Source of the DNA: Gammaproteobacteria bacterium
Lineage (GTDB): Bacteria > Pseudomonadota > Gammaproteobacteria > Eutrophobiales > Eutrophobiaceae
Assembly (NCBI GenBank): GCA_947480335.1
Contig: CANKCB010000008.1
Location: 10,741 to 74,740 of the forward strand
Length of the DNA: 64,000 nucleotides
Direction of reading: 5' to 3'
Shown here: positions 1-60,081 of the stretch, piece by piece
Layout of the letters: every line of letters starts with the position of its first letter
Position numbering within the stretch: position 1 is the stretch's first letter
Made by a program: the position numbers and the translations under genes
Notes under the pieces: model-generated
Seen by the model: the letters and a program-made list of their open reading frames with translations, nothing else
The model's database searches: none
Told to the model about the DNA's origin: nothing

Positions 1-130
1 GGAATGTTTTAAAGTCCGGGGTTTGGTGGGTTGCGGGTGTACAGGACGCTCCAGATTGATATTTACCGGGTATCCTTGGGCTAATACTGCTAAAATTACC
101 GTAACTTCCGTATTCTGATGTCACTACACC

Positions 131-2287
131 ATGTTGCAGACTGCTCCGGATATCTTTTGGTATCGCCAATACTGGGCCAAACGGCTGTTGCCGGCGCCGG
201 TATTGCCGATGTCGCGTGCGGAAATGGACCTGCTCGGTTGGGACGAGTGCGACATTATTATAGTGTGTGGTGATGCCTATGTAGACCATCCCAGCTTTGG
301 TATGGCGTTGGTCGGGCGCTTGCTCGAATCGCAGGGTTTTCGGGTTGGCATTATTGCGCAGCCGGACTGGACCTCGGCCGATCCGTTCCGCGTGCTGGGC
401 AAGCCGAAACTGTTTTTTGGCGTGTCGGCCGGCAATATGGATTCGATGGTGAATCGTTATACCTCGGATCGCAAGATCCGCTCGAATGATGCGTACACCC
501 CGGGCGGGGCAGCCGGTAAACGGCCAGACCGTGCAGTGGTGGTTTATTCGCAGCGTTGTCGTGAAGCCTATTCCGGTGTGCCGATCATTATCGGTGGCAT
601 TGAAGCCTCCTTGCGGCGTATTGCCCATTACGATTACTGGTCAGAGAAAGTCCGGCGTTCGATCCTGTTAGATAGCAAGGCGGACCTGCTGGTGTTTGGC
701 AATGCCGAGCGTGCGATTGTTGAGATCGCACACCGCATTGCAGCCGGTGAGCAGGCACGTGATATTCATGATTTGCGTGGCACGGCGTTCACAATCAAGT
801 CTTTGCCGCCGGGTTGGACTGAACTGGATTCGACCACTCTGGATGAGCCGGGCGCGATTGATGCACACACAAACCCGTATGCAATGACGCCGGTGAAAAG
901 TGCGTGCAGCACGGATACCGAAAAGGTTGCGGAAAAGCCGATCCATTTTCAACGCGAACATCCGAAAAACGAATCGGCCGATACGGTCGTGCGTTTGCCG
1001 GCGTATGAACAATTAAAAGATGATTCGGTGTTATATGCCCATGGGGCCCGGGTGATGCATCTGGAAACCAATCCGGGCAATGCGCGCGCACTGGTGCAGC
1101 GCCACGGCGAACGCGATGTCTGGTTGAATCCGCCACCAGTGCCGTTAACGATGGCGGAAATGGACAGGGTGTATGAGTTGCCGTATACGCGCTTGCCACA
1201 TCCGGCGTATCAGAATGAAAAAATTCCCGCGTATGAAATGATCCGCTTTTCCGTGACGATCCAGCGCGGTTGTTTTGGCGGCTGTTCATTCTGTTCGATT
1301 ACCGAACACGAAGGGCGCATCATCCAGAATCGTTCCGAAGGCTCCATCCTGCGTGAAGTGGAAAACATCCGCGATACCGTGCCGGGATTCACCGGTGTGA
1401 TTTCGGATCTGGGTGGGCCTACCGCGAACATGTACCGCATTGCCTGCAAATCGCCGGACATCGAAAGCAAGTGTCGCAAGCCTTCCTGTGTGTATCCCGG
1501 TGTGTGTCCGAACCTGAACACGGATCACTCCGCCCTGATTCAGTTATACCGCAAGGCACGTGAGTTGCCCGGCATCAAGAAAATACTGATTGCGTCCGGT
1601 GTGCGATACGATCTTGCAATCAAGTCGCCCGCTTATGTGAAGGAGCTGGTCACCCATCATGTCGGTGGCTATCTGAAAATTGCACCGGAGCATACCGAGC
1701 AGGGGCCACTGTCGAAGATGATGAAGCCGGGCATGGGTGCGTATGATCGGTTTAAACAATTATTTGATCAATATTCGAAAGAGGCGGGCAAGGAACAATA
1801 TCTGATTCCGTATTTTATTGCCGCGCATCCGGGCACAACCGATGAAGACATGCTGAACCTGGCCATCTGGTTAAAGCAGAACGGCTTTCGCGCGGATCAG
1901 GTCCAGACGTTCCTGCCTTCGCCGATGGCGCTGGCCACCGCGATGTATCACAGCAATAAAAATCCGTTACGCAAGGTGACCCGCGACAGCGAATATGTGC
2001 CGGTGGCCCGACAACTGAAAGTGCGGCGCTTGCACAAGGCATTCCTGCGCTACCACGATCCGGAAAACTGGCCGATGTTGCGGGTGGCATTAAAACGCAT
2101 GGGACGCATGGATCTGATCGGCCCGGGCAAGCGTTGCCTGATTCCGGCCTGGCAGCCCAGGGCGGCGGACACGAATACCAGCATTAAGCCCGGCAAACGT
2201 TTCCTGACTCGTCATACCGGGCTGCCACCACTGCCAGTTGACCGGATCAAACGCGGCAAGAAGGGTAAATCCTCGAATAGTCAGTAA
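131..2287 (+). CDS. ygiQ: YgiQ-family radical SAM protein (UPF0313)
   Basis: 718 aa. Near-colinear similarity to E. coli YgiQ ([34 protein letters not shown]..., GCFGGCSFC radical-SAM Cys motif, C-terminal basic tail). Confidence 0.85.
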
Positions 2288-22915: not shown

Positions 22916-23875
22916 TTATTTTTTAACCAGCGTGTCAAAGTGTGCCTTGATCTTCTTGCGCATGGTTTCATCCGGCTGTTTGCCCAGACCGGCACTGAGG
23001 TTATCCACCATATTGCTGGCCTTGGTAGTCTCAGTCAGGATCGTGTTGATGGCAGGCTGACCGAGCAGATATTTCAGGTTAAATTGCCCCCAGCTATTAC
23101 ATTCAAACTCAGCGGTCCAGTCCGGCAGTGTCTGGCCCTTGACGGTTTTGAAATATTCTCCGCCATTAAACGGGCTATTGATTAACACCCCGATACCGAG
23201 ATCCTGTGCCAGTGGCAAGATGCGTTGTTCAGCTTCCGGTTCGAGCAGGGAGTAATTCACTTCAATAAAATCAGGCTTGTCACTCTTCATGAATGCTTCC
23301 ATACGTTCATGGTCTGCCGTGGCCGACGTGGTGATACCGATATATCTGGCTTCACCGCTGCTCTTCCAGTCTTTCAAACTTGGCCAGTGCAAATCCATAT
23401 CCGTCATGCTTTCAACAAAAATCAAATCAGCTGGTGTTCGATGGAACAGGCGTTTGGTCTGCTCATACTGACCGATACCGCCTTGTTTATCGACCTCACG
23501 TACATCCAGAAATCGGTTCAGACCTATCTTGGTCGTAATAAAAAACTTGTCTTTGAATTGTGGCAACACCAGCACATTACCAAAAGCCTCATCGATTTCC
23601 TTTTCACGCGGTGCTGTATCGATCACGCTGGATCCCAGCTTCAGCATGGTTTCCAGCAGTTCGGTCATCAGCGCCGGACCATCTTTCACGATCAATCGAA
23701 CAGCCGCCGTAGAGCCAAAGCCAATCACCGGTAACTTCTCACTGGTGCCATGTATGACGCGTTTAATCATGGTTCCGGCGGCTTGCTGGGCAATGGCACT
23801 GGTTGGTAACAGGCTGGCAAAGCCCAGTGCGGTGGCTGTCTTGATAAAGTCTCTTCTGGTTTGTTCATTGAACAT
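22916..23875 (-). CDS. aldo/keto reductase family protein with Tat signal peptide (paralog 1)
   Basis: 319 aa. TRRDFIKTATALGFASLL twin-arginine signal. AKR-like motifs (VIDTAP, YIGITTS, NYSLLEPE). Confidence 0.65.
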   Translation of the reverse strand: MFNEQTRRDFIKTATALGFASLLPTSAIAQQAAGTMIKRVIHGTSEKLPVIGFGSTAAVRLIVKDGPALMTELLETMLKLGSSVIDTAPREKEIDEAFGNVLVLPQFKDKFFITTKIGLNRFLDVREVDKQGGIGQYEQTKRLFHRTPADLIFVESMTDMDLHWPSLKDWKSSGEARYIGITTSATADHERMEAFMKSDKPDFIEVNYSLLEPEAEQRILPLAQDLGIGVLINSPFNGGEYFKTVKGQTLPDWTAEFECNSWGQFNLKYLLGQPAINTILTETTKASNMVDNLSAGLGKQPDETMRKKIKAHFDTLVKK

Positions 23876-23904
23876 AGTCAGGTTTCCCGTGTTGGTGGTT
23901 AAGA

Positions 23905-24864
23905 TTATTTTTTAACGAGCGTATCGAAATGTGCTTTCATCTTTTTGCGCATCTCGGCATCCGGCAGGTGGCCAGTAGCGGCACGCAGATTTTCTTCCAT
24001 GTTGGTTGTCTTCGTGGTTTCGGTGAGCACACAATTGATGGCAGGTTCACTCAGGATGTATTTCAGATTGAATTGTGCCCAGCTGGTGCAATCAAATTCC
24101 GCTGTCCAGTCTGGTAGTGTCAATCCCTTTACTGTCTTGAAATATTCTCCACCGCCAAACGGTGTGTTAATCATGACGGCAATTCCCTTGTCGCGGGCCA
24201 GTGGCAGGATGCGTTGTTCGATTTCCGGCTCCAGCAGCGAGTAGTTCACCTGGATAAAGTCTGGCTGGTGCGTGTTCATATAGCCTTCCATTTTTTCGTG
24301 GTCGACTGTGTTCGAGGTGGTGTAGCCGATATAGCGGGCGTTGCCCTGGCTTTTTTCTTCCTGCAGGGTTGGCCAGTGCAGATCCATATCAAGCATCGTA
24401 TCGACCAGAATCAGATCAGCCGGGTTACGCTGAGAGAGTCTTTCTGTTTCACGAATCTGGTTAATGCCGCCCTGTTTATCCACTCGTTTCAGGTTCAGCG
24501 CGCGATTACGTCCAACTTTGCTGTTGACGAACAGTTTTCCCTTAAATTGCGGTAACAGTAGTAACTGGCCAAAAGCCTGTTCGACATCGGTTTCTCGCGG
24601 AGCCGTGTCAATCACACTGGCACCCAGTTTGACCATGGTCTCCAGAATCGAGGTCAGTGAAGCAGGGCCGGTTTTCAATAAAACTTCCACAGCAGCGGAC
24701 GATCCGAAACCGAGTATCGGCATCATCTCGCTGGTACCCGGTATGGCCCGTTTGATCACTGTGTCGGCGACAGTCTGGGAAAATCCGGTTACAGGTAACA
24801 GGCTGGAAACACCAAGTGCAGTGGTGGTCTTCAGAAAATCGCGTCTGGTCTGACAAGTCAACAT
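23905..24864 (-). CDS. aldo/keto reductase family protein with Tat signal peptide (paralog 2, tandem duplicate)
   Basis: 319 aa, about 60% identical to the adjacent gene over its full length. TRRDFLKTTTALGVSSLL Tat motif. Confidence 0.65.
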   Translation of the reverse strand: MLTCQTRRDFLKTTTALGVSSLLPVTGFSQTVADTVIKRAIPGTSEMMPILGFGSSAAVEVLLKTGPASLTSILETMVKLGASVIDTAPRETDVEQAFGQLLLLPQFKGKLFVNSKVGRNRALNLKRVDKQGGINQIRETERLSQRNPADLILVDTMLDMDLHWPTLQEEKSQGNARYIGYTTSNTVDHEKMEGYMNTHQPDFIQVNYSLLEPEIEQRILPLARDKGIAVMINTPFGGGEYFKTVKGLTLPDWTAEFDCTSWAQFNLKYILSEPAINCVLTETTKTTNMEENLRAATGHLPDAEMRKKMKAHFDTLVKK

Positions 24865-24951: not shown

Positions 24952-25842
24952 TTACCGTGTCAATATCAGGGCGGTTCCTGTTACAGACAAAATTGCACCG
25001 ATCCAGGCTCCTTTGGCCGGTGATCGACGCAGGAATATCCATAAAAGCGGTAATAACAGTATCGGCGTGACAGAAGAAAGTATGGCCACCATGCCTACGT
25101 CACCGAGATGTAGTGCAAGTAACAGTAGTGACATGCCGATGGCCATACCGACCACACCACTGAGTGCGGTCTGGCCCAGGATGCGCAAGGTGATCGGCTG
25201 GATTGCACGTGCGGATTTGATACCCAGACCCAGAATCACCATATGCCCACCGCAGGAAGCCGAGACACGGATAGCCGAGGCCAGGATCGGATCCATCGTG
25301 CCAGTCATGATTGGTTTGGCAATCATCGTACTGACTGAATGACACAGTGCAGCCGTTAAACCGAGAATAATACCAAGGCCATGATGACCGTGATTTTGTT
25401 CCCAGGCATGGTCTTCGGTTTTGCGACGGCCATACATGACGGCGATCATGACGCCGGAAATGGTCATGATCGCGCCGAGCGTGGCCTGCAGATTCATACG
25501 CTCGTCGAAAATTGAAAAACCGAGTACGGCACTGATCAGCGCATTGGTCGAAAACAGGATGCCGGAGCGGCGCGGTCCCAGCATATTCATGGCGCTGAAA
25601 TTGGCCGTGTCACCGATAAAGATGCCGATAAATCCACTTAACGCCATGGTTATCAGCTGGGTAGATGTCATTGTTTGCCAGCCACTCAAGGACAGCGTGA
25701 TAATCCATAGAACGATCGCCACCATGAACATGCGCCAGCGGGTAAACGCAATCGCGCCCAGATGGCGAGAGGGAGTAACAGACAACATACTGCCAATCGC
25801 CCAGCAGGCAGCGGCGGCCAAGGCTAGCAGGTCATTGGACAT
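24952..25842 (-). CDS. DMT superfamily (EamA-type) transporter
   Basis: 296 aa, 10 TM, two EamA-like halves. Confidence 0.7.
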   Translation of the reverse strand: MSNDLLALAAAACWAIGSMLSVTPSRHLGAIAFTRWRMFMVAIVLWIITLSLSGWQTMTSTQLITMALSGFIGIFIGDTANFSAMNMLGPRRSGILFSTNALISAVLGFSIFDERMNLQATLGAIMTISGVMIAVMYGRRKTEDHAWEQNHGHHGLGIILGLTAALCHSVSTMIAKPIMTGTMDPILASAIRVSASCGGHMVILGLGIKSARAIQPITLRILGQTALSGVVGMAIGMSLLLLALHLGDVGMVAILSSVTPILLLPLLWIFLRRSPAKGAWIGAILSVTGTALILTR

Positions 25843-26056
25843 GGGCAGATTCCTGTTATTGTGTTTGTTCAGACCAGGTAATGTGCAACTGCCAAATTCT
25901 ATCGAAAAACCGGCAATAAGTCTTATAATGATGGCGATATAAAGTTTCCGGATCCGGTTGAATATATTTAAGGGGACTTGGCGTCAAGGCCCGCAACATT
26001 CTGCAAAGTTACCTGTCTATGTAGTTGTCCAGTTTGGATAACAGAAGAAGGGTTGT

Positions 26057-26266
26057 ATGAATCAACTTGGAACGGTATCAGCTTTACTGGTATCAGGTAC
26101 ATTATTGATGGCCAGTGCGGTAATGGCTGAGCCGGAACGTCAGTCCATCCATAGCAAGATGCTCGATCAAAGTACAAAGTTTTGCAGAACAAATCACAAT
26201 TGCCGTTCACAGGCCAATAGTCTGGAGCAGGATGATCGTGACGAGGAACGTCCATCATTGGTTTAG
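26057..26266 (+). CDS. possible small secreted protein
   Basis: 69 aa. Hydrophobic N-terminus (LLVSGTLLMASAVMA). Acidic C-terminus. Weak support. Confidence 0.25.
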   Translation: MNQLGTVSALLVSGTLLMASAVMAEPERQSIHSKMLDQSTKFCRTNHNCRSQANSLEQDDRDEERPSLV

Positions 26267-26358
26267 ATCATCAGAATCTCATATGGAAATGCAATACTGG
26301 GCAAGAAAATTCAGGGTAATCAAACACAGAACATGGCCAGAGTAGTCAGTGTGACGGC

Positions 26359-26999
26359 ATGAGTGTCGATAAGGCTGCATTATTCAGTCATGAAGTGGTT
26401 CCGTTCTATCTGTCACTTGCGGTTCTGGTTGCTGTTGCCATGCTCTGTGATGGCTTTTTGCATCTGTATGACATCGTCTGGATTGGTCGCTATCTTGGGA
26501 TTCCAGGTACATTAAATCATTCCAACAGGAGCTGACCGAGCAGGATTGTATGGCCTGTCATACAGATCATGCCGGACTGGTGCTGGCCCACAGCCCTAAA
26601 CCATTCTTACATAACTTATTGAAAATACAGGTTCGTGAGCAGTGTGCAACTTGTCATAACGTACCGGTTAACGACATTTATCAAAACCTGATTGAAAAAT
26701 GCTCACAATGCCATAACTCTCAGTCCTGGAAGCCAGCAAAGTTTGACCATAATAAATTTTTCCAGCTGGATAAAAACCACAATACATCCTGTATCACCTG
26801 CCACGTGGACAATGTCCATACCGAATTCACCTGTTTTGGGTGCCATGCACATACACTGGATAACATTCGCCGCGAACATGAAGAAGAGGGTGTCCCCAAT
26901 TTTAATAACTGTGTCGAGTGTCACCGCAATGCGCATGATGAACCCGGTAGCGAGGGTGGTCGCAAGGAAGATGGTGGAGAGCGTGAAGAGAATGATTGA
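26359..26999 (+). pseudogene. membrane-anchored hexaheme c-type cytochrome, apparently frameshifted (or needs recoding) between TM anchor and heme domain
   Basis: Frame 1, 26359..26535: MSVDKAALFSHEVVPFYLSLAVLVAVAMLC... (TM anchor), ending at a TGA. Frame 0 is open from 26472. It holds a CxxCH (CMACH) immediately before the track ATG at 26550, then five more CxxCH (CATCH, CSQCH, CITCH, CFGCH, CVECH). Confidence 0.5.
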
Positions 27000-27074
27000 T
27001 TTCGGATTACAGCAGTGTAGTCAGACAGGCTTATTGGAATAAATTATCTGATACCACTATTCTGTATCCCGGAA

Positions 27075-27623
27075 TTACAGTGTTATCTTCTCGATTGATT
27101 TCCAGTGTCCGGGTTGCAATTCGTCTAGGCTGATATCTCCGATTTTGAGTCTGACCAGTCGCAGTGTGGGGTGACCGACGGCGGCAGTCATTTTCCGTAC
27201 CTGGCGGTTGCGTCCTTCGCGGATGGTCAATTCAATCCAGGCCGTCGGCACGTTTTTGCGAATTCGTATCGGGACAGATCGCAGGGGAAGGTCGGGATCT
27301 TTTTCCAGCAGGCGTACTTCCGCCGGCCGTGTTTCCCTGCCCTCAATCACCACGCCCTTACGTAATTTTTGCAGCGACTCTTCTGATGGAATACGCTCTA
27401 TCTGCACAAGATAGGTTTTGGGTAGTTTGAACTTCGGATCGGTAAGTTTATGCTTTATCTGGTTATCATCGGTTAACAGCAACAGTCCTTCACTGTCGTA
27501 ATCCAGCCTGCCAACCGGATAGACATTTTTCGGGAAGTCGAAATCCTGTAAAGATTGTTTCCCCCCTTCAGGCATGAACTGGGAGAGTACAGCGTAAGGT
27601 TTGTTAAACAGGATATACATCAT
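27075..27623 (-). CDS. rluE: 23S rRNA pseudouridine synthase RluE (RsuA family)
   Basis: 182 aa. MMYILFNKPYAVLSQF..., GRLDYDSEGLLLLTDD catalytic Asp motif. Confidence 0.8.
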   Translation of the reverse strand: MMYILFNKPYAVLSQFMPEGGKQSLQDFDFPKNVYPVGRLDYDSEGLLLLTDDNQIKHKLTDPKFKLPKTYLVQIERIPSEESLQKLRKGVVIEGRETRPAEVRLLEKDPDLPLRSVPIRIRKNVPTAWIELTIREGRNRQVRKMTAAVGHPTLRLVRLKIGDISLDELQPGHWKSIEKITL

Positions 27624-27786
27624 AGTGAAGAAACTTAGCAGAATTGAGTGGTTAGAACAAATCGAGAGATTAAAAGTTAATCACTCTGATGCTTTAAGTG
27701 TTGATTATGAATCTTTACGCTGGCCCTAATTATTTACAATCAACATTGGCACGTTATATTTTTTTTACCTAGGTGGTCTCTATTTT

Positions 27787-27943: not shown

Positions 27944-29157
<1,214 letters not shown>

Positions 29158-29304
29158 CCACCACACCCTTTCGGAAAGTATTTAGGTGTCCGGCATTAGT
29201 AGACCACTTCAAGCAGCTTTTTATAGCTTATTGTCAGCATAGATTAATAACCCACTTAATCTTTGCTTATCTACTTTTCCCCTAATTATTTCTTGCAGAT
29301 TTCA

Positions 29305-29700
29305 TACTTTACAAGGATGAAGGCGGAACTGGTGTGCGATGCATTGAGGATGGCACTGTGGCGACGCGAACCAAAGGCTGGGTTGATTGTGCATTCTGAC
29401 CGAGGTTCCCAGTACGCCAGCAAGAAATACCGGCAGTTGCTGAAGGCGTATGGATTCATCGGGAGCATGAGAAGGAAAGGGAATGGTTGGGACAACGCAG
29501 TTGCAGAAAGTTTCTTTGGCAGTTTGAAACAGGAACAAGTGCAATGGTGCCATTACCAAAGCCGATATGAGGCGCAGCAAAATGTGCTGGATTACATCAC
29601 TATATTTTACAACAGCGTCTGACTGCATTCGTATCTGGGTTACAAAAGTCCAATGCACTATGAAGCACAGAGGGCAACATTGAGGAAAAAAACGGCTTAA
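29305..29700 (+). pseudogene. 5'-truncated fragment of a second, different IS3-family OrfB with internal TGA nonsense codon
   Basis: AELVCDALRMALWRREPKAGLIVHSDRGSQYAS...WDNAVAESFF...FYNSV*LHSYLGYKSPMHYE. About 45% identical to the intact OrfB over the last ~130 residues. Stop codon where IS3 OrfBs have Arg (YNSVR-LHS). Confidence 0.7.
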
Positions 29701-45484: not shown

Positions 45485-45841
45485 ATGTTGGCTAATTATT
45501 TACCGATTCTGATTTTCCTCATTATTACCATGGTAATGGGTTCGGCGTTTTTCCTGATTGGTTATGTGCTCGGCCCGAAGAAGTTCGATTCCGAGAAAAT
45601 GTCCTCGTATGAATGTGGTTTTGCGGCATTCGAAGATGCCCGCATGAAATTTGACGTCCGTTATTACCTGGTAGCTATCCTGTTTATCATTTTTGACCTG
45701 GAAATCGCCTTTTTCCTGCCCTGGGCTGTGGCCTTGCGCGAAATCAATATTGCTGGATTCTGGGCCATGATGATCTTTCTGGGTGTACTGGTCGTTGGCT
45801 TTATTTACGAATGGCGTAAAGGGGCACTGGAATGGGAGTAG
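45485..45841 (+). CDS. nuoA: NADH-quinone oxidoreductase subunit A
   Basis: 118 aa, 3 TM, first gene of the nuo operon. Confidence 0.9.
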
Positions 45842-46317
45842 AAGAAAAAATTCACGAGTCAGGTATCGTGACCACTACGGTGGACAATCTGGTGAACTGG
45901 GCAAGAACCGGCTCCATGTGGCCGATGACGTTTGGTCTGGCGTGCTGCGCAGTCGAAATGATGCATGCCGGAGCCTCCCGTTATGATCTTGACCGTTTTG
46001 GTATCGTATTTCGTCCCAGTCCCCGGCAATCGGATGTGATGATTGTGGCCGGGACGCTGGTCAACAAGATGGCACCGGCCTTGCGCAAGGTGTATGACCA
46101 GATGCCAGAACCTCGCTGGGTTATCTCAATGGGGTCGTGTGCAAACGGTGGTGGTTATTATCATTATTCCTATGCGGTAGTACGTGGTTGTGATCGTGTC
46201 GTGCCGGTTGATATTTATGTACCGGGTTGTCCACCAACAGCAGAGGCCCTGCTGTTTGGTATCATCCAGCTGCAGAAGAAAATCAGACGCGGCAAAGTCA
46301 ATATTATTTCTGCCTAG
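45832..46317 (+). CDS. nuoB: NADH-quinone oxidoreductase subunit B
   Basis: 161 aa. [18 protein letters not shown] Fe-S (N2) ligands. Confidence 0.9.
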
Positions 46318-46334
46318 GAAGATACGTACCCATC

Positions 46335-47030
46335 ATGTCGGAAACGCTGGAACAACTTCAAAATCGTTTGACCGCTTGTTTTGGCGATAAAATCAGCGCA
46401 TCTATTATGCATTGCGGGGAACTCACGCTTGAAGTTGAAGCCGCCAATGCGATTGACGTATTCAGCAAGTTACGCAAGCTGGAAGAATTCCATTTTGAAC
46501 AGCTGATTGATCTTTGCGGTATTGATTATCAGCGATTTGGCAAGGCAGACTGGGAAACCGAAGATACCACCAGCACCGGTTTTAGTCGGGGCGTCAGCAA
46601 GGACATCTATAATGAGAACCTGAATAAGCCAGCACGGTTTGCTGTGGTATATCACCTGTTGTCACTGCTACACAATCGCCGCTTGCGAGTACGAGTATTT
46701 TTGCATAACAATCCGCCGCGTATTGAATCGGTTACCAGTATCTGGGCTTCTGCCAACTGGTTTGAGCGAGAGGCTTTTGATTTGTTCGGTATCCTGTTTG
46801 AAGGACATCCGGATCTCAGACGTATCCTGACAGACTATGGTTTTATCGGACATCCCTTCCGCAAGGACTTCCCGTTGGAAGGCAATGTGGAAGTAATTTA
46901 TGACCCGGAAAAGAAGCGTGTGGTTTATCAACCAGTCACGATCCGAAATCGTGTGTTGGTGCCGAAAGTGATACGCCATGACGACAGATTTACCAGCAAC
47001 CCGCCGCCCGCGGGAGCAAGTACCAAATAA
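46335..47030 (+). CDS. nuoC: NADH-quinone oxidoreductase subunit C (separate, not fused to D)
   Basis: Start at [12 protein letters not shown]. The track ORF starts upstream, inside nuoB. 231 aa. Confidence 0.85.
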
Positions 47031-47050
47031 TATTAGCGAGCCCGGAATTC

Positions 47051-48304
47051 ATGCCTGAAATCAGAAATATGACAATGAACTTTGGTCCACAGCATCCTGC
47101 GGCCCACGGTGTATTGCGTCTGGTACTGGAGATGGACGGTGAAATCATTGAGCGTGCCGATCCGCATGTAGGCTTGTTGCACCGGGGTACCGAAAAACTG
47201 GCCGAATACAAACCCTATAACCAGAGTATCGGCTATATGGATCGGCTCGATTATGTATCAATGATGTGCAATGAGCATGCGTATGTGTTGGCCATCGAGA
47301 AATTGCTTGGTGTGACACCTCCTATACGTGCGCAGTATATCCGTGTGATGTTCGATGAAATTACGCGTGTACTGAACCATTTGATGTGGTTGGGTGCGCA
47401 TGGCTTGGATATCGGTGCAATGACCATGTTCCTGTATTGTTTCCGAGAACGTGAAGACCTGATGGACTGCTATGAAGCGGTGTCGGGTACCCGTATGCAT
47501 GCTACCTATTATCGTCCAGGTGGTGTGTATCGTGATTTGCCTGGAACAATGCCGCAATACCAGACCTCAGTCTGGAAAAATGCAAAACAGGTTTCGGAGT
47601 TGAACCAGAACAGACAGGGGTCCCTGCTGGACTATATAGAATCGTTCACCAGTCGTTTTCCGGCGTGTGTAGATGAATATGAAACGCTGTTAACCGATAA
47701 CCGAATCTGGAAACAGCGTACCGTGGGCATAGGCGTGGTTACCCCGGAACGAGCATTACAACTGGGTTTCACTGGCCCGATGCTACGTGGTTCCGGTATC
47801 GAGTGGGACCTGCGCAAGAAGCAACCGTATGAAGTGTATAGTCAGATCGATTTTGACATTCCGGTAGGCGTGAATGGTGATTGTTATGATCGCTATCTGG
47901 TTCGAATCGAGGAGATGCGTCAATCCAATCGCATTATCAAACAGTGTGTGGACTGGCTGCGTAAAAATCCAGGGCCGGTGATACTCGATAATCACAAGCT
48001 GGTACCGCCACGTCGTGAAGAAATGAAAGACGATATGGAATCGTTAATTCATCATTTCAAACTGTTTACTGAGGGTTACTGTGTTCCGGAAGGTGAAGCA
48101 TACGCCGCCGTTGAGCATCCGAAAGGCGAATTTGGTATTTATCTGGTATCGGATGGTGCCAATAAACCTTATCGCCTGAAGATTCGTGCTCCCGGGTTTG
48201 TGCATTTGTCCTCAATGAATGAAATGGTCAAGGGACACATGCTGGCTGACGTGGTTGCCGTCATTGGTACGCAGGACATCGTATTCGGGGAAGTGGATAG
48301 ATAA
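47051..48304 (+). CDS. nuoD: NADH-quinone oxidoreductase subunit D
   Basis: 417 aa. [16 protein letters not shown] conserved N-terminus. Confidence 0.9.
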
Positions 48305-48305
48305 T

Positions 48306-48803
48306 ATGACTGATCAAGTAAAGCCTGTATTGTCCGAACATGCCCGCAAGGAGATTGATCACTGGCTGGCCAAATATCCGGAAGATCGTAAACAATCAGC
48401 TGTGCTTGCCGCCTTACGGGAAGTGCAGCATGAGAATAACGGATTTCTGACTACGGAATTGATGGACGCGGTAGCCGATTATCTGGGTATGCCGCAGATT
48501 GCTGTATATGAGGTGGCAAGTTTTTATTCGATGCTGGAGACCAAACCGATTGGTCGTCACAGTATTTCTATTTGTACCAACATCTCCTGCATGTTGTCCG
48601 GTTCGGATGCGGTTGTTGACTATACCGAGAAGAAACTGGGAATCAAAACCGGCCAGTCGACAGCGGACGGACGGTTTTTCCTGAAAAAGGAAGAAGAATG
48701 TCTGGCGGCCTGTTGTGGCGGGCCGATGATGATGGTGGATCATGTGTACTATGAAAATCTTACCAACGAAAAGATAGATGCAATCCTGGAAAAACTGGAC
48801 TGA
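48306..48803 (+). CDS. nuoE: NADH-quinone oxidoreductase subunit E
   Basis: Start at MTDQVKP (48306). 165 aa. CxxxxC...CxxxC [2Fe-2S] motifs. Confidence 0.85.
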
Positions 48804-50110
48804 TGGCCGAGATAAAACAAAATTTGGTTTGTTATGCCACACTTGGTGTGGAGCAGCCGTGGACGCTGGAAAATTATCATCGTGTAGGTGGTTATGACGC
48901 GTTGAAAAAAATTATCCGTGAAGGGATTACTCCGGAACAGGTGATTGAAGAGATGAAAGCCTCCGGTCTGCGTGGCAGGGGTGGAGCGGGTTTCCCGGCC
49001 GGATTGAAATGGAGTTTTATGCCGGCCAAGTTTGAAGGCCCGAAATATGTGGTTTGTAATTCGGATGAAAGCGAACCGGGTACCTGCAAGGACCGGGACA
49101 TACTGAGATTTAATCCGCACTCACTGGTCGAAGGCATGACCATTGCCTGTTATGCCATGCGTACCAAGGTTGGCTATAACTATATGCGTGGCGAGTTTAT
49201 GGATGAGCCGTTCGCCCGGTTTGAAAATGCACTGAAAGAAGCGTATACGAATAATTATCTGGGCAAGAATATTCTGGGTTCGGATGTCAGTATCGATATC
49301 CATGCCACGCTTGGAGCAGGTGCGTATATCTGTGGCGAAGAAACAGCGTTGCTGAATTCACTCGAAGGCAAGAAAGGTCTGCCGCGCTTCAAGCCACCGT
49401 TCCCTGCCAACTTCGGCTTATATGGCAAACCGACAACTATCAACAATACCGAAACCTTCGCCTCTGCTCCGTCGATTATACGTAATGGCGCCAAATGGTT
49501 TGCGGATCTGGGTGTGGCCAATAGTGGTGGAACCAAATGTTTTTCCGTCAGTGGCCATGTAAACAAGCCTGGGAATTTTGAAATTCCGATGGGTACATCG
49601 TTCCGGGATTTGCTTGAATTGGCCGGTGGTGTTCGTCATGGCAGAAAATTGAAAGCAGTGATTCCGGGCGGATCTTCTGTACCGGTATTGCCTGGCGAAA
49701 AAATGATGCAGGCCAATATGGATTATGATTCGATCAAGCAGGTTGGTTCGATGCTTGGGTCCGGTGCGGTCGTCATTATGGATGACACTACCTGTATGGT
49801 GAAAATGCTTTGCCGTATTTCGCAGTTTTATCATGCTGAATCCTGCGGCCAGTGTACGCCTTGTCGCGAAGGAACTGGTTGGCTGTATCGTATGCTGCGT
49901 CGGATTATGGATGGCAAGGGTGAACTGGAAGATATGGACAAACTGGTCGATGTGGCAAACAAGATCGAAGGCCGTACGATATGTGCGCTGGGTGATGCCG
50001 CTGCCTGGCCGGTTCAGAGTTTTATGAAACATTACCGGCATGAATTTGAATACATGATCAGAAACAAGGGTCGCAGCATAGTCGACAGCCCGGATTATAA
50101 AGCGGCTTAA
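48803..50110 (+). CDS. nuoF: NADH-quinone oxidoreductase subunit F
   Basis: 435 aa. [21 protein letters not shown] motif. [12 protein letters not shown] [4Fe-4S]. Confidence 0.9.
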
Positions 50111-50142
50111 CGAACAGCCGCAAAGATAATGAAATTATTTAA

Positions 50143-52515
50143 ATGACTGACGATACAATAACAATCGAAGTAGACGGCAAACCTCTGCAGGCCCGAAAGG
50201 GTCAAATGCTGATCGAGGTGACGGATGCGAACGACATTTATATTCCGCGTTTTTGTTACCACAAGAAACTGACTATCGCGGCCAATTGCAGAATGTGTCT
50301 GGTTCAGGTTGAGAAAGCGCCCAAGCCATTGCCAGCCTGTGCTACACCGGTGATGGATGGAATGAAAGTCCAGACCCGTTCGGCCTATGCGCGTGACGCA
50401 CAGAAAGCTGTAATGGAATTTTTGCTGATTAACCATCCTCTGGATTGCCCGATTTGCGATCAGGGCGGTGAATGTGAATTGCAGGATCTCGCGATGGGTT
50501 ACGGATCGGATGTTTCGCGTTATCAGGAAAAGAAACGTGTTGTTAAGGACAAGAATATCGGTCCATTGGTACAGACCGAAATGACACGCTGTATCCATTG
50601 CACGCGTTGTGTACGCTTTGGTGAGGAAATAGCCGGTTTGCGTGAATTGGGTGCAACCGGTCGCAGTGAATTTATGGAAATCGGTACCTATGTCGAAAAA
50701 AGTATGGTGTCCGAATTATCCGGCAACGTGATAGATGTTTGTCCGGTCGGAGCGTTGACATCAAAACCTTTCCGTTTTTCAGCACGTACCTGGGAAATGA
50801 CCCAGTATCCAGGCATTGCCCCACATGATGGTACCGGTTCAAATATCCACTTTCATGTGAAACATGATGTAGTAAAACGTGTGGTTCCGGCTGAAAATGA
50901 AGCTATCAATGAAGTCTGGCTATCTGACAGGGATCGATTCAGTTATGAAGGACTCTACAGCCAGGATCGCCTGACTGTTCCAATGGTCAAGGAAAATGGC
51001 GTATGGCGTGAAACGAGCTGGGAGGCGGCACTGGATCAGGTTGCCAGCCGTATGCAGAAACCAGTTGGTGCCACGGCCAGTCAATTAGGTGCACTGATCT
51101 CTCCGACAGCTACCTCCGAAGAAGCCTGGTTGATGCAGAAGTTAGTCAGGGCAGCTGGCAGTAATAATATTGATCACCGCTTGCATCAATCAGACTTTAC
51201 TGATGCAGCGCATGATCCGGCATTCCCCTGGTTAGGCCAGGCGATACCGGAACTGGAACAGCTCGACACAGTCTTGTTAATCGGTGCCTGGCCACGGAAA
51301 GAACAACCGTTATTAAACCTGCGTTTGCGCAAGGCGGCGTTACGGGGTGCCAATATCATGGTGGTCAATACAATTGACTACGATTTCAATTACAAAATCT
51401 CAGACAAGCTGATTTCCGATCCGGTCACTCTGATCCACGACGTTGCCGCAGTATTAAAAGCGGTGTCTGAAATTTCCGGAAACAAAATTGAATCGGGCAA
51501 GTTATTGGAAGCTGTAGTAGTCAATGACAAGCATCGCGCGATTGCGAGCAAGCTGGCTGCGGGTAAAAAATCAGCCATACTCGCGGGCAATCAGTTTATG
51601 GCACACACACAGTATTCTACATTGAGATATTTGGCTGGTCATATAGCCAGCCTGTCGGCTTCCAGTTTTGGATATCTGGGAGAATCGGCCAATGAGGCAG
51701 GCTGCTGGTTGGCTGGCGCAATACCCCATCGAGGTACCGGTGCTAAAAAGATCGATCAGCCAGGTTTGAATGCACGCAGTATGATGGAGCAGAAGTTATC
51801 CACTTATTTGTTGTTCAACATTGAACCGGAACTGGATTGTGCCAATGCGGCATTGGCCATGGCGAGTCTGCAAAATGCGGAAACGGTAATCGCTTTTACA
51901 CCCTATAAGTCAGCTTCTCTGTTGCAGGTAGCTAACATTATGTTACCAATTGCGATCTATGCAGAAAATGAAGGTTCTATGATTAATGTGGCTGGTCAGT
52001 CGCAAGTCTACTCAGCCTGTGTACCGGCTCAGGGTGAGGCACGACCCGGCTGGAAAATCTTGCGTGTGCTGGCCAATCGTTTGGGCGTAGCTGCATCGGA
52101 GTACCAGTCAGTCGAAGCAGTACGTAATGAACTCAATACAGTAATCTCTTCGGTAACACCGGATAACCGAGCAGACTGGGTCAGGCCGGAAGCTTTGCCC
52201 TCAGTACCGGGTGGAATATTGAGGACGACTGAAATCCCGATGAATTCAGTCGATACACTGGTCAGACGCGCTGAGGCCTTGCAACAGACAGCAGATGTCG
52301 CCGATGGTGCAGTACATATCAATAGCAATCTGGCTGGTAAACTCAGATTGAACGGTAGCAGCAAGCTTGTGGCGCAACAGCAGGGGAGTGCGCTGGAGCT
52401 GAATTATGTGCTCGACAACAGATTACCGGATAATACCGTACTGATTCAGGCTGCCCATCCCGCAACGTCGGCATTGGGTGCCTGGTTTGGTGAAATCACC
52501 CTGAGGAAACTGTAA
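50143..52515 (+). CDS. nuoG: NADH-quinone oxidoreductase subunit G
   Basis: 790 aa. N-terminal 2Fe-2S / 4Fe-4S Cys clusters (CYHKKL..., [13 protein letters not shown]). Confidence 0.9.
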
Positions 52516-52520
52516 AGCCA

Positions 52521-53633
52521 ATGTTAAACACATTGTTAAACACAGTTTTCGAATGGATACAGACCAATATCCTGATGCAAATCATCGGGGTTGTGGTGCC
52601 TGTGGCATTCCAGAATGAGGCCCTGCTGATTGCGAGTACAATAGTGAAGATAATTGCCATTATTGCGCCGTTGATGATCATCGTGGCGTATACCACCTAT
52701 GCCGAGCGCAAGATCATTGGTTACATTCAATGTCGTATCGGTCCTAACCGGGTTGGGTTCTTTGGTTTTCCCCTGGTTGGATTGGGGCAGCCTATTGCCG
52801 ATGCGGTCAAACTGATGTTCAAGGAAATTATCATTCCGACCGGCGCCAACAAACCCTTGTTTATTATTGCCCCGATATTATCGTTTGCTCCGGCGCTGGC
52901 CGCCTGGGCTGTCATACCGTTTGATGATGTGATGGTGCTTGCTGACATCAATGCGGCACTGATTTACATACTTGCACTGACCTCGCTGGCTGTTTATGGA
53001 ATCATCATTGCCGGTTGGGCTTCGAACTCAAAATATGCTTTTCTCGGCGCCATCCGCTCTGCAGCGCAGATTATTTCCTACGAAATTGCGATGGGATTTG
53101 CACTGGTGTGCGTACTGGTGGCAGCAGGCAGTCTGAATCTGGGCGACATCGTCGAGGCGCAAAGTGGCAGCGTATTAACGTGGTTCTGGATACCCCTGTT
53201 CCCGGTATTTGTTATTTACTTTATATCCGGTGTGGCAGAAACCAATCGCGCGCCGTTTGACGTGGCTGAAGGTGAATCAGAAATCGTGGCAGGGTTCCAT
53301 GTTGAGTATGGTGGTATGGCTTTCTCAATTTTCTTTATGGCGGAATATGCCAATATGGTACTCATTTCAGCCCTGGCATCGATCATGTTTCTGGGCGGCT
53401 GGCTGTCTCCGTTACAGGGAGTGCCGGTAATCGGTGAACCTTCACTTGGCTGGTTGTTGCTGAAGTCGTCATTTTTCCTGTTTCTGTTTTTATGGCTCCG
53501 TGCAACGTTCCCCCGATATCGCTATGACCAGATCATGCGTCTCGGCTGGAAAGTATTCCTGCCCATTACCATTGTCTGGATAGTCATTGTTTCAGCGATG
53601 GTGGTGATGAGAATACCACCCTGGTTTAACTAG
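52521..53633 (+). CDS. nuoH: NADH-quinone oxidoreductase subunit H
   Basis: 370 aa. [18 protein letters not shown] motif. Confidence 0.85.
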
Positions 53634-53657
53634 ACGATTCGGCAACGAGCTTAGATT

Positions 53658-54146
53658 ATGCAAAAAATCGGACAATATTTTCAGAGTTTGCTGTTATGGG
53701 AATTGCTGAAGGGCTTGCAATTAACAGGCAAGTATCTGTTCAAACGCAAGATTACTGTGCAGTACCCCGAGGAAAAAACACCGATGTCTCCACGCTTCCG
53801 TGGTTTGCATGCACTTCGTCGTTATCCCAATGGAGAGGAACGTTGCATTGCCTGCAAGTTATGCGAAGCTGTTTGTCCGGCTGTGGCCATTACCATTGAT
53901 TCTGAACAACGCTCAGACGGCACACGACGCACGACACGTTATGATATTGATTTGACCAAATGTATATTTTGCGGGTTTTGTGAAGAATCCTGTCCGGTTG
54001 ACTCTATCGTCGAAACCCATGTGTTTGAATACCATGGTGAGAAGAAGGGTGATTTATTGATGACCAAACAGAGATTGCTGGAAAACGGTGACAAGTATGA
54101 GCAGCAGATTGCGGCTGCACGTGCCAGTGACGCGATGTATCGATAG
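53658..54146 (+). CDS. nuoI: NADH-quinone oxidoreductase subunit I
   Basis: 162 aa. Two CxxCxxCxxxCP ferredoxin motifs. Confidence 0.9.
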
Positions 54147-54181
54147 TACGGAATACCTGATTAATAACGGCTGACTGACGA

Positions 54182-54790
54182 ATGTTTGAACTTTATATAT
54201 TTTATTTTTTTGCAGCGATGATGTTGCTGTCAGCGACGATGGTCATCACTGTGCGTAATCCGGTACATGCGGCCTTGTTTCTGGTACTGGCATTCTTCTC
54301 CAGCGCGACCGTCTGGCTGTTATTACAGGCCGAGTTTCTGGCGATCATTCTGATTCTGGTTTATGTCGGTGCCGTCATGGTTCTGTTCCTGTTTGTGGTG
54401 ATGATGCTGGATATCAATCTTGCCCGAATACGGGAAGGCTTTGCCCGGTTTTTGCCAATCGGGATAGTCGTCGCCGTGTTGATGGCTGTGGCGATGGTCA
54501 TGGCACTGAAAACCGTGTATCTGGATGCGGCACATCTTGATGTCTTTGCAGCGCCTGCGGCAGATTACAGTAACACCCGTGAACTGGGCATGGTTCTGTA
54601 CACAGAATATCTTTATCCATTTGAGATCTCGGGTGCAATCCTGCTGGTCGCCATAATTGCCGCCATCAGCCTGACCCTGCGTAATGGTAAACCCAACAAG
54701 ACCCAGAATCCGGAGGAACAGGTTCGGGTAAAGAGCAAGGACAGGGTGCGTATCGTCAAGGGTATGGATACGGAGCAAAAGACATCATGA
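54182..54790 (+). CDS. nuoJ: NADH-quinone oxidoreductase subunit J
   Basis: 202 aa, 5 TM. Confidence 0.85.
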
Positions 54791-55092
54791 TTACGCTGGG
54801 ACAGGTACTGGTTCTTGCCGCGATACTGTTTTGTATCAGTGTTGCCGGCATTTTTATCAACCGCAAGAATGTGATCATTCTGCTGATGTGTATCGAGCTG
54901 ATGCTGTTATCCGTCAATATGAATTTCATTGCCTTCTCACACTTTTTGCATGATATCCATGGACAGATATTTGTCTTCTTCATTCTTACTGTAGCCGCTG
55001 CTGAGTCTGCGATTGGTCTGGCGATTCTGGTCGTGCTGTTCCGGAACAGAAGTACGATTAATGTTGCCGACCTCGACAGTTTGAAGGGATAG
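54787..55092 (+). CDS. nuoK: NADH-quinone oxidoreductase subunit K
   Basis: 101 aa, 3 TM, overlaps nuoJ by 4 nt. Confidence 0.9.
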
Positions 55093-55096
55093 ACGG

Positions 55097-57073
55097 ATGC
55101 AGGCACTCGATATGAAATCAATTTATCTGGCCATTGTGCTGGCACCACTGGTCGGTTCAGTCATTGCCGGTTTGTTTGGTCGTGCAATAGGCCGTAATGG
55201 CGCCCATTGGGTGACCATCCTTGGCGTGGGTATTTCCAGCCTGTTATCGCTGTATGCCTACAAGCATATTGTATTTGATGGTGGCGAGCTGTTTAACGAG
55301 GTGATCTATAACTGGTTAACTACAGGCAACCTCAGTCTGAGTGTTGGTTTCATGGTAGATCGTCTGACAGTGACGATGATGGTGGTTGTGACATTCGTAT
55401 CGTGGATGATACACATCTACACCATTGGATATATGCATGAGGACCCTGGCTATCAGCGGTTCTTCAGTTATATATCGTTATTTACATTTGCCATGCTGAT
55501 GCTGGTCATGTCGAACAACTTTATGCAGTTGTTTTTTGGTTGGGAAGCGGTTGGTCTGGTCTCTTATCTGTTAATTGGTTTCTGGTTCAAGAAGGAAACT
55601 GCCATCTTTGCCAATATGAAAGCTTTTCTGGTAAACCGTGTGGGCGACTTCGGATTCCTGCTCGGTATAGCCGCTGTGTTGATGACATTCAAGACGCTCG
55701 ATTACGCGCAGGTATTCTCCCAGGTTTCAACGTTCGCCAATGCCACTGTGCAAATTTTGCCTGGCACGGACTGGTCATTAATGTCGGTAATCTGTATTTG
55801 TCTGTTTATCGGTGCGATGGGTAAATCGGCACAGGTACCCTTGCATGTGTGGTTGCCGGATTCAATGGAAGGTCCGACACCTATCTCTGCGTTGATCCAT
55901 GCCGCTACGATGGTCACTGCCGGTATTTTTATGGTGGCAAGAATGTCACCCTTGTTTGAGTTGTCTGAGACAGCATTGTCATTTGTGTTGGTCATCGGCT
56001 CAATCACCGCCTTCTTCATGGGTCTGTTGGGACTGGTGCAGAATGACATCAAACGAGTCATTGCTTATTCAACCTTGTCTCAGCTGGGCTATATGACAGT
56101 GGCGCTAGGTGTGTCTGCCTATTCAGCGGCGATTTTTCATCTGGTGACACATGCCTTTTTCAAGGCATTGTTGTTCCTGGCGGCGGGCTCAGTCATCATT
56201 GCGATGCATCATGAGCAGGACATGCGCAAGATGGGTGGTTTGTATCGACACTTACCCGTGACCTGGATTACTTCGCTGATTGGTTCGCTGGCGTTGATTG
56301 GATTCCCGGGTACTTCCGGATTTTTCTCCAAGGATGCCATTATTGAAGCTGTGCATGAATCACATCTACCCTTTGCTGACTGGGCCTATGTGGCGGTACT
56401 TAGTGGCGTATTTATTACCGCACTGTATTCGTTCCGTCTGTTTTTTATGGTATTCCATGGCAAAAAGCGAATGGATCATCATACCGAAGAGCATTTGCAT
56501 GAATCACCTGCGGTGGTGACGGTGCCCTTGTCCGTGCTGGCAATACCTTCATTACTGATTGGTTCGTTTCTGGTAGGCCCAATGTTATTTGGCGATTATT
56601 TCCTTGAGGCGATCTATGTAGCACCTCCACATAATGTACTCGAAGTGATGGGTGAGGAGTATCACGGTATTGTTGAATTCACCTTGCACGCCTTCTCGGC
56701 AGCCCCGGTCTATCTGGCATTGGCGGGTGTGTTTGTCGCCTGGTTACTCTATATCAAATATCCGGATGTGCCTGAAAAGATTGCATCGCGGTTTGGTCTG
56801 ATACACCGGATACTGTTAAACAAATATGGGCTGGATGATTTCAACCAGATTGTGTTTGCCGGTGGCGCCAGATTACTGGGTAGATTTTTGTGGCAGAACG
56901 GTGATGTCAGATTGATAGATGGTTTACTGGTAAATGGTACCGCTTCAGCTGTGCGCTGGTTCTCGTCGAGGATCAGGGTGATCCAGTCTGGTCTGTTACA
57001 TGATTATGCGTTCACTATGATCATTGGGCTGCTGGTACTGCTTGCAGTTTTCGTTCTACGGTTCTTGCAGTAA
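55097..57073 (+). CDS. nuoL: NADH-quinone oxidoreductase subunit L
   Basis: 658 aa antiporter-like subunit. Confidence 0.9.
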   Translation: MQALDMKSIYLAIVLAPLVGSVIAGLFGRAIGRNGAHWVTILGVGISSLLSLYAYKHIVFDGGELFNEVIYNWLTTGNLSLSVGFMVDRLTVTMMVVVTFVSWMIHIYTIGYMHEDPGYQRFFSYISLFTFAMLMLVMSNNFMQLFFGWEAVGLVSYLLIGFWFKKETAIFANMKAFLVNRVGDFGFLLGIAAVLMTFKTLDYAQVFSQVSTFANATVQILPGTDWSLMSVICICLFIGAMGKSAQVPLHVWLPDSMEGPTPISALIHAATMVTAGIFMVARMSPLFELSETALSFVLVIGSITAFFMGLLGLVQNDIKRVIAYSTLSQLGYMTVALGVSAYSAAIFHLVTHAFFKALLFLAAGSVIIAMHHEQDMRKMGGLYRHLPVTWITSLIGSLALIGFPGTSGFFSKDAIIEAVHESHLPFADWAYVAVLSGVFITALYSFRLFFMVFHGKKRMDHHTEEHLHESPAVVTVPLSVLAIPSLLIGSFLVGPMLFGDYFLEAIYVAPPHNVLEVMGEEYHGIVEFTLHAFSAAPVYLALAGVFVAWLLYIKYPDVPEKIASRFGLIHRILLNKYGLDDFNQIVFAGGARLLGRFLWQNGDVRLIDGLLVNGTASAVRWFSSRIRVIQSGLLHDYAFTMIIGLLVLLAVFVLRFLQ

Positions 57074-57085
57074 ATCAGGGGGAGT

Positions 57086-58603: not shown

Positions 58604-58615
58604 TACAAAATTGTC

Positions 58616-60052: not shown

Positions 60053-60081
60053 TTTGATCCTTACAAGCGGCGGATAACAGA

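Follow-up and report, generated by a model that had tools for sequence, protein, structure and literature searches.

Positions 26359–26999 of a 64 000-nucleotide stretch of DNA from a gammaproteobacterium (the whole stretch analysed is referred to as the window) carry two overlapping reading frames, one of which begins with a hydrophobic segment while the other contains a series of heme-binding motifs. The question raised by this arrangement was whether the two frames are the halves of a single membrane-anchored hexaheme c-type cytochrome gene, as was put forward in the original prediction, or whether they have separate origins. The reading frames were compared with intact relatives in protein and genome collections and the locus was compared with independent assemblies of the same population.

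The heme-motif frame and its intact homologues

The called ORF at 26550..26999 encodes 149 amino acids with five CxxCH motifs and lacks a signal peptide. Its frame stays open in the 5' direction to 26472 (a TGA codon lies just before, at 26469–26471) and includes a sixth motif, CMACH. In the neighbouring frame, the ATG at 26359 starts a 58-residue ORF (MSVDKAALFSHEVVPFYLSLAVLVAVAMLC...) with a clear transmembrane-like (TM-like) segment and a stop codon at 26533–26535. All three of these readings had been part of the original prediction and were borne out by the sequence. The cytochrome frame before 26550 contains no ATG, GTG or TTG start codon and no hydrophobic segment, and the annotated methionine of the called ORF is an internal methionine within heme motif 3. 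The coordinates of all features are given in Table 1.

The heme motifs are not a product of chance, since the encoded sequence scored above the gathering thresholds of the Pfam models Cytochrome_C7 (PF14522; 32.3 bits, cut-off 24.8) and Cytochrom_CIII (PF02085; 26.2 bits, cut-off 22.9) and homologues were matched with E values down to 8e-81. Homologues were collected using the conceptual join of the two ORFs as a query, which gave 275 matches among 5.8 billion protein clusters. Apart from one 149-residue entry (P0001) that is 98% identical and equally truncated, the homologues are ~245 residues in length and possess their own N-terminal hydrophobic anchor (e.g. MISRWILTLVAIVTVALVVLTFIYP...) together with eight CxxCH motifs; counted over the 117 full-length sequences, eight motifs are present in 108, ten in eight and seven in one. 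A chimera of the hydrophobic N-terminus with a hexaheme domain was not encountered among the homologues found. The closest intact relative, P0002 (72% identity, E = 8e-81), is encoded on contig L002 and was found on a second independent contig (L003), and no intact homologue closer than this was detected among the 5.8 billion clusters.

Residues 82–246 of P0002 matched the window with 74.5% identity in a tblastn search (E = 1e-83), and the window translation aligns to the homologues only from residue ~86 onward (...IKSFQQELTEQDCMACH...). Over this range (window 26514–26996, residues ~86–246, 72–75% identity to P0002) heme motifs 3–8 line up with those of the family, as do most of the conserved histidines. 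The frame 5' of 26514 shows no homology and contains no start codon or hydrophobic stretch. The window copy has the heme-domain homology of the family, with six CxxCH motifs in place of eight; it differs from the intact members in having no in-frame N-terminal TM anchor, no motifs 1–2 and no start codon of its own, and in the loss of three near-invariant residues. The compact six-heme cytochrome of ~210 residues that had been envisaged gives way to an octaheme ancestor of ~246 residues.

The NapC/NirT/NrfH family, which had been named in the original prediction, is not the one to which the protein belongs. The matches are to c3/c7-type models, and the Cytochrom_NNT model (PF03264) gave no match at E ≤ 1 for either the remnant or intact P0002; a scan of NCBIfam yielded only a sub-threshold DmsE-family match (28 bits, cut-off 192). 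NapC, NirT, NrfH and CymA share with the present family the principle of an N-terminal TM helix that holds a multiheme c-type cytochrome on the periplasmic face of the inner membrane, but they carry four to five hemes, whereas the octaheme family has eight hemes and an obligate His-rich membrane-protein partner (see below). The resemblance to class III cytochromes c3/c7 (PF02085, PF14537, PF14522) lies in the dense spacing of the CxxCH motifs, with ~27 residues per heme, and in extra conserved histidines that fit bis-His ligation. Classical c3/c7 proteins are soluble periplasmic cytochromes with three to four hemes and a cleavable signal peptide, in contrast to the eight hemes and the uncleaved-looking anchor found here. 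A close solved structure was not found for the cytochrome, the best sequence match in the PDB having E = 9e-4. The family belongs to the Betaproteobacteria, with members for example in Azonexus hydrophilus, [Acidovorax] ebreus, Rhodoferax, Gallionella and Ferrigenium, which go under the names 'cytochrome c3 family protein' or 'class III cytochrome C family protein' in NCBI annotation; the ~245-residue anchored octaheme family is annotated yet uncharacterised.

Deletion junctions and gene remnants

On contig L002 the gene directly upstream of the cytochrome gene (1360..1947; referred to as gene A) encodes a 195-residue protein that starts MSVDKAALFSHEVVPFYLSLAVLVAVAMLCDGLLHLYDIVWVGRYLGIPGTLL... 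/ MSVDKAALFSHEVVPFYLSLAVLVAVAMLCDGLLHLYDIVWVGRYLGIPGTLLILG..., and the two genes overlap by ATGA. Residues 1–52 of the 58-residue ORF in the window are 96% identical to this protein, after which the ORF reads past a junction into foreign sequence before its stop at 26535. The ORF at 26359 is, by homology, the N-terminus of the neighbouring gene for a 195-residue His-rich membrane protein, a gene other than that of the cytochrome, and the TM segment that had been regarded as the cytochrome anchor belongs to it. Orthologues likewise offered no continuous ORF of the kind that had been suggested: they encode the heme protein separately from gene A, an outcome that the original prediction had named as counting against it, and the heme protein begins at an ATG with an anchor of its own. 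The gene A family comprises more than 6,200 clusters, nearly all of 192–195 residues, with no Pfam domain and no name, and neither a 58-residue nor a chimeric form was found outside the window's own population. In a scan of species-representative genomes at least 574 loci encode relatives of the cytochrome; in 79 of the best 80, which were examined, only a few bases at most separate the end of a gene A homologue from the first codon of the cytochrome gene, and in the last the cytochrome gene lies at a contig edge. Directly upstream of the cytochrome remnant in the window, only 52 codons of this gene are left.

The extent of the loss was defined by blastn against L002. Two segments, L002 1258–1514 with window 26257–26513 (92.6% identity) and L002 2199–3327 with window 26514–27666 (81.5%), abut exactly at 26513|26514 in the window, and the intervening L002 positions 1515–2198 have no blastn counterpart there; a second copy of gene A or of the cytochrome gene was not detected by tblastn within the 64 kb. 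A functional paralogue may exist in the part of the genome beyond these 64 kb, but it would leave the reading of this locus as it is. The missing 684 bp comprise gene A codons ~53–195 (the 3' three-quarters of the gene) and cytochrome codons 1–85, which encode the anchor and hemes 1–2, so that the cytochrome remnant retains heme motifs 3–8 only. The junction was set from the blastn segments; a MAFFT global alignment of the window with L002 put the gap in the wrong place. The base position of this junction is uncertain by a few nucleotides and each junction of the locus is placed within a few bases, as the closest intact reference is only ~81–93% identical in DNA sequence. Microhomology around ACATTA at the junction is possible.

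In the intact arrangement gene A and the cytochrome gene are read in different frames. The loss of 684 bp, a multiple of three, preserves this offset and leaves the joint out of frame, which gives the locus the look of one gene split over two frames. Each of the two reading frames is native to a gene of its own, and no single-base insertion or deletion restores any natural protein.

Table 1. Features of the remnant locus and its flank (window coordinates)
Feature	Position	Strand	Description
Remnant 1: secreted-protein gene stump	26057..26256	+	First 67 codons, with signal-peptide-like N-terminus, of a ~201-aa gene
Deletion junction 2	26256..26257	.	~1.5 kb missing relative to the L091/L002 arrangement
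Gene A promoter/leader region, retained	26257..26358	+	Within blastn segment L002 1258..1514, 92.6% identity
Remnant 2: gene A stump	26359..26513	+	First ~52 codons; TM helix 1 and start of helix 2
Deletion junction 1	26513..26514	.	684 bp missing relative to L002 positions 1515..2198
Remnant 3: octaheme c3-family cytochrome gene stump	26514..26999	+	Last ~161 codons and stop; original ~246 aa
Heme motif CMACH	26547-26561		Sixth CxxCH of the cytochrome frame; first Cys precedes the annotated Met
Heme motif CATCH	26643-26657
Heme motif CSQCH	26700-26714
Heme motif CITCH	26790-26804
Heme motif CFGCH	26832-26846
Heme motif CVECH	26910-26924
RluE-like pseudouridine synthase gene, intact, convergent	27075..27623	-	Pfam PseudoU_synth_2, E = 6.9e-22
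IS3-family coding region	27947..29157	+	orfA (HTH_Tnp_1, 108 aa) and orfB (rve, 295 aa), overlapping, in different frames (Pfam)

The small secreted ORF noted next to the supposed cytochrome gave a similar picture. The called ORF (26057..26266, 69 residues, stop codon at 26264–26266) has a signal-peptide-like N-terminus, but it is not a standalone small protein: in a search of 1.84 billion representative proteins it was 85% identical to P0297 (201 residues) over residues 1–67 only, and three further homologues are 215–221 residues in length. It is the truncated stump of a ~201-residue gene, and the remaining residues of P0297 are absent from the window by tblastn. P0297 has an RD-rich middle part and a conserved C-terminal YCREY...GTAC.QPDG.W motif. 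Its last 44 residues are 100% identical to the translation of L002 1..132, which places a gene of this type upstream of a 166-residue gene and gene A in the intact arrangement. A further contig, L091, matches window 25903..26256 with its positions 1..355 (86% identity); as the homology to L091 ends at 26256 and that to L002 (from its position 1258) begins at 26257, a second deletion lies between them. It removed the last ~134 codons of the 201-residue gene (two-thirds of this gene), the whole 166-residue gene (L002 483..983) and intergenic DNA. Read in this way, the interval 26057–26999 consists of three gene stumps and one retained promoter region.

The most likely course of events can be outlined. 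The ancestor carried, in order, the gene of the ~201-residue secreted protein, that of the 166-residue protein, gene A, the gene of the 246-residue anchored octaheme cytochrome and a convergent rluE, an arrangement that the closest intact relative (contigs L002, L003 and L091) retains. One deletion of 684 bp joined gene A codon ~52 to cytochrome codon ~86 and another of ~1.5 kb took the 3' part of the secreted-protein gene along with the entire 166-residue gene; we infer both their order and their mechanism, presumably illegitimate recombination, possibly at short microhomology. The cytochrome fragment that was left is now drifting. We therefore regard 26057–26999 with high confidence as gene debris and the split cytochrome as two gene stumps fused by the 684-bp deletion, an ordinary pseudogene. 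That the locus is a pseudogene had been one of the readings in the original prediction and is borne out; the cause proposed there, a frameshift or a sequencing indel, has to be replaced by the deletion.

Pseudogenes derived by deletion are a known kind, and no new compact cytochrome is involved. The window copy is truncated relative to all of its homologues and has lost its start and its export signal, and it shares with ordinary internal-deletion pseudogenes the truncation, the break in frame, the lost targeting, a faster substitution rate and a nonsense polymorphism. What sets it apart is only that the missing stretch crosses from one gene into the next, so that the outcome mimics a single gene with a frameshift. 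As a general caution, ORFs that overlap in adjacent frames and resemble one frameshifted gene may be two neighbours that a deletion has fused, which nothing but a comparison with orthologues reveals.

Decay of the remnant and alternative explanations

In cytochrome c maturation heme is attached on the periplasmic side, and an apoprotein that is not exported stays heme-free. Without an export signal the heme ORF as called cannot function, a point on which the original prediction was right. The stump has no start codon and neither an anchor nor a signal, and two of the eight heme sites are gone; it could not reach the periplasmic heme-attachment machinery, and it most likely is neither expressed nor functional and does nothing.

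Conservation was assessed over the region covered by the remnant using the 53 alignment columns in which the 117 intact homologues show a conservation of 95% or more. The remnant departs from the consensus at five of these columns, while the intact homologues do so at no more than four, and 88 of the 117 at none. Two of the five departures affect conserved histidines, one by a change of FHQ to FQQ (CAA at 26523–26525) and the other by replacement with tyrosine (TAT at 26679–26681); both were probably distal heme ligands. A third affects the glutamate of the CHEH motif (GCA at 26847–26849). In a relative-rate comparison, 15 changes from the family consensus are unique to the window lineage and four to P0002 (binomial p = 0.019), and of the 116 other homologues 115 are more similar to P0002 than to the window sequence.

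Variation within the population has the same direction. At the two histidine sites the loss is stepwise: L001 has H and H, L085 has H and Y (the first histidine being kept) and the window has Q and Y; the polymorphic positions among the three are 26525 (A/C) and 26679 (T/C). Contig L001 also contains a nonsense change in the gene A remnant (TAT to TAA at 26409, codon 17). Over 1,155 bp, on this one short metagenome contig, L001 differs from the window at nine positions, all in the two remnants (26409–26950), and at none in the ~450 bp of flanking sequence; the three nucleotide differences that fall within the 149-residue ORF are all non-synonymous. The numbers are small (five sites; 15 against four changes) and all point in the same direction, which suggests that the remnant is decaying under relaxed constraint.

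Among the alternatives, a functional new gene fares best and is nevertheless very unlikely. Such a gene would give either an anchored six-heme chimera through frameshifting or reinitiation, or a 149-residue product with a new cytoplasmic role. Consistent with this, the 149-residue ORF is open in all of the population variants seen and the promoter region of gene A has been kept. Frameshifting would call for a slippery sequence, but the ORF at 26359, searched in frame over its whole length, contains no heptamer of the type X XXY YYZ; for initiation at the ATG at 26550, the nearest AGGAG lies ~18 nt upstream, too far for a good Shine–Dalgarno site. The stop at codon 17 in L001 truncates the would-be anchor, and the replaced histidines and glutamate, the faster evolution relative to the intact relative and the exclusively non-synonymous differences from L001 in the 149-residue ORF all speak against a maintained function.

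That the 684 bp and 1.5 kb were dropped by mis-assembly from a genome that is in fact intact is less probable again, and we consider it highly improbable. The sequence is metagenome-derived and the nearby insertion sequence does break some contigs (L088 and L089 end there). The identical junction and gene order were, however, recovered in L001 and L084–L090, that is, in at least eight independent assemblies, which were taken from ENA (several studies), from the NCBI metagenome-assembled genome GCA_947467065.1 and from Logan, with contigs of up to 83 kb and one listed at 217 kb. Junction and flanks are identical even though the contigs, some of 50–217 kb, stem from different studies and samples and from different types of assembly (k141, k127, scaffold-type and Logan unitig-based), and there is no collapsible repeat at the junctions. 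The exact 149-residue ORF is indexed in 45 blocks of the sequence collection, and the exact 149-, 58- and 69-residue ORFs are present on many contigs. As the same junction is found in at least eight independent assemblies it is no sequencing error, and the deletion appears to be present in the genome and to be no artefact; the substitutions at conserved sites and the nonsense variant are likewise what real decay would leave.

The remaining possibility, a single TM-anchored hexaheme gene of ~210 residues broken by a one-base indel in 26472–26535 through mutation or sequencing error, can be dismissed almost entirely: the ORFs do overlap in adjacent frames such that a −1 shift would join them, and helix 1 of gene A would, judging from its charge distribution, plausibly put the part that follows into the periplasm, but the N-terminal segment matches the start of a separate, widespread gene, every full-length homologue has an anchor of its own and usually eight hemes, 684 bp and not one are missing, and the interval proposed for a homopolymer error contains no run of four or more bases (only GGG and AAA).

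The reading of the locus as deletion debris has consequences for annotation. The 69-, 58- and 149-residue 'proteins' in public collections are deletion remnants that should be flagged as pseudogenes, and metabolic reconstructions of this uncultured freshwater lineage should not credit it with a c-type cytochrome on their account.

The intact cluster in relatives and the surroundings of the locus

In 72 of the best 80 loci a gene of ~429 codons lies directly upstream of gene A. Its product has a TM segment at the N-terminus, domains that bind FAD and NAD, and a 2Fe–2S domain at the C-terminus, so that the cluster consists of a reductase, the 195-residue membrane protein and the anchored octaheme cytochrome c [for example L059 2139–4762 (Ferrigenium straubiae), with others in L004–L081]. 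It is common in Betaproteobacteria and occurs in Rhodoferax, Rubrivivax, Propionivibrio, Azoarcus, Ferrigenium and other genera. L002 has the pair with no reductase gene beside it, and no homologue of the reductase was found in the window.

The gene A product is a five-helix protein with six invariant histidines (H35, H80, H94, H98, H170 and H184), of which H80/H94 and H170/H184 form pairs on predicted helices; the spacing within each pair is 14 residues, which is also found in di-heme b cytochromes. Weak but recurrent domain matches were obtained to DUF4405 (15 of 25 members) and to Ni_hydr_CYTB, the prokaryotic cytochrome b561 family (11 of 25, best E = 2e-5); a solved structural relative of gene A or of the cluster was not found. 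Inner-membrane complexes of the CbcL and CbcBA type in Geobacter combine a di-heme b cytochrome (HydC/FdnI, Ni_hydr_CYTB type) with a multiheme c-type cytochrome, and the intact pair similarly combines a small His-rich membrane protein with a multiheme c-type cytochrome. The gene content suggests a putative electron path from NAD(P)H through FAD and 2Fe–2S to a di-heme b membrane protein and on to the periplasmic octaheme cytochrome c. Such a conduit would resemble a split version of the NOX/ferric-reductase arrangement that ends in a periplasmic heme wire. We offer only tentatively, as a possibility that is itself doubtful, that the cluster is an NAD(P)H-driven inner-membrane electron-export chain that was discarded by the freshwater lineage of the window; a functional chimeric hexaheme protein in the window is far less likely than that.

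A description of the pair or of the cluster was not found in the searchable literature, including work on the cytochromes of Gallionellaceae and Ferrigenium; the 'octaheme complex' of a Ferrigenium preprint is a different, four-gene unit. This widespread, strictly conserved and unnamed cluster thus appears to be undescribed and may deserve a separate study.

Downstream of the remnants, the convergent rluE served as a synteny anchor, as its counterpart in L002 (2736..3284, minus strand) occupies the same place and is covered by the blastn segment of 81.5% identity. An IS3 element follows directly after rluE, and some contigs of the same population end there; a second, truncated rve-type transposase fragment of 119 residues comes after it (29263–29622). 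Deletion mediated by an insertion sequence was considered and found no support, the IS3 element being ~1.4 kb away with an intact rluE between and no IS sequence at either junction. With the IS elements and the two deletions, the stretch from 26 to 30 kb stands out as one in which genes have decayed and been rearranged. A promoter and terminator scan of 25800–27700 gave counts no higher than those of shuffled sequence.

On the other side of the remnants, at 22916–24864 on the minus strand, there are two tandem aldo/keto reductase genes of 319 residues each, which look like a tandem duplication; at least the second carries a twin-arginine-like signal (MLTCQTRRDFLKTTTALGVSSLL) and is therefore probably periplasmic. 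Further downstream, a same-strand run of ORFs at ~45800–60100 looks like a nuo operon (NADH:quinone oxidoreductase): a 417-residue product is named NuoD in its cluster, and products of 790, 658, 505 and 478 residues fit NuoG, NuoL, NuoM and NuoN in size. The run is ordinary housekeeping context, and the GC content of the window is 49.6%.
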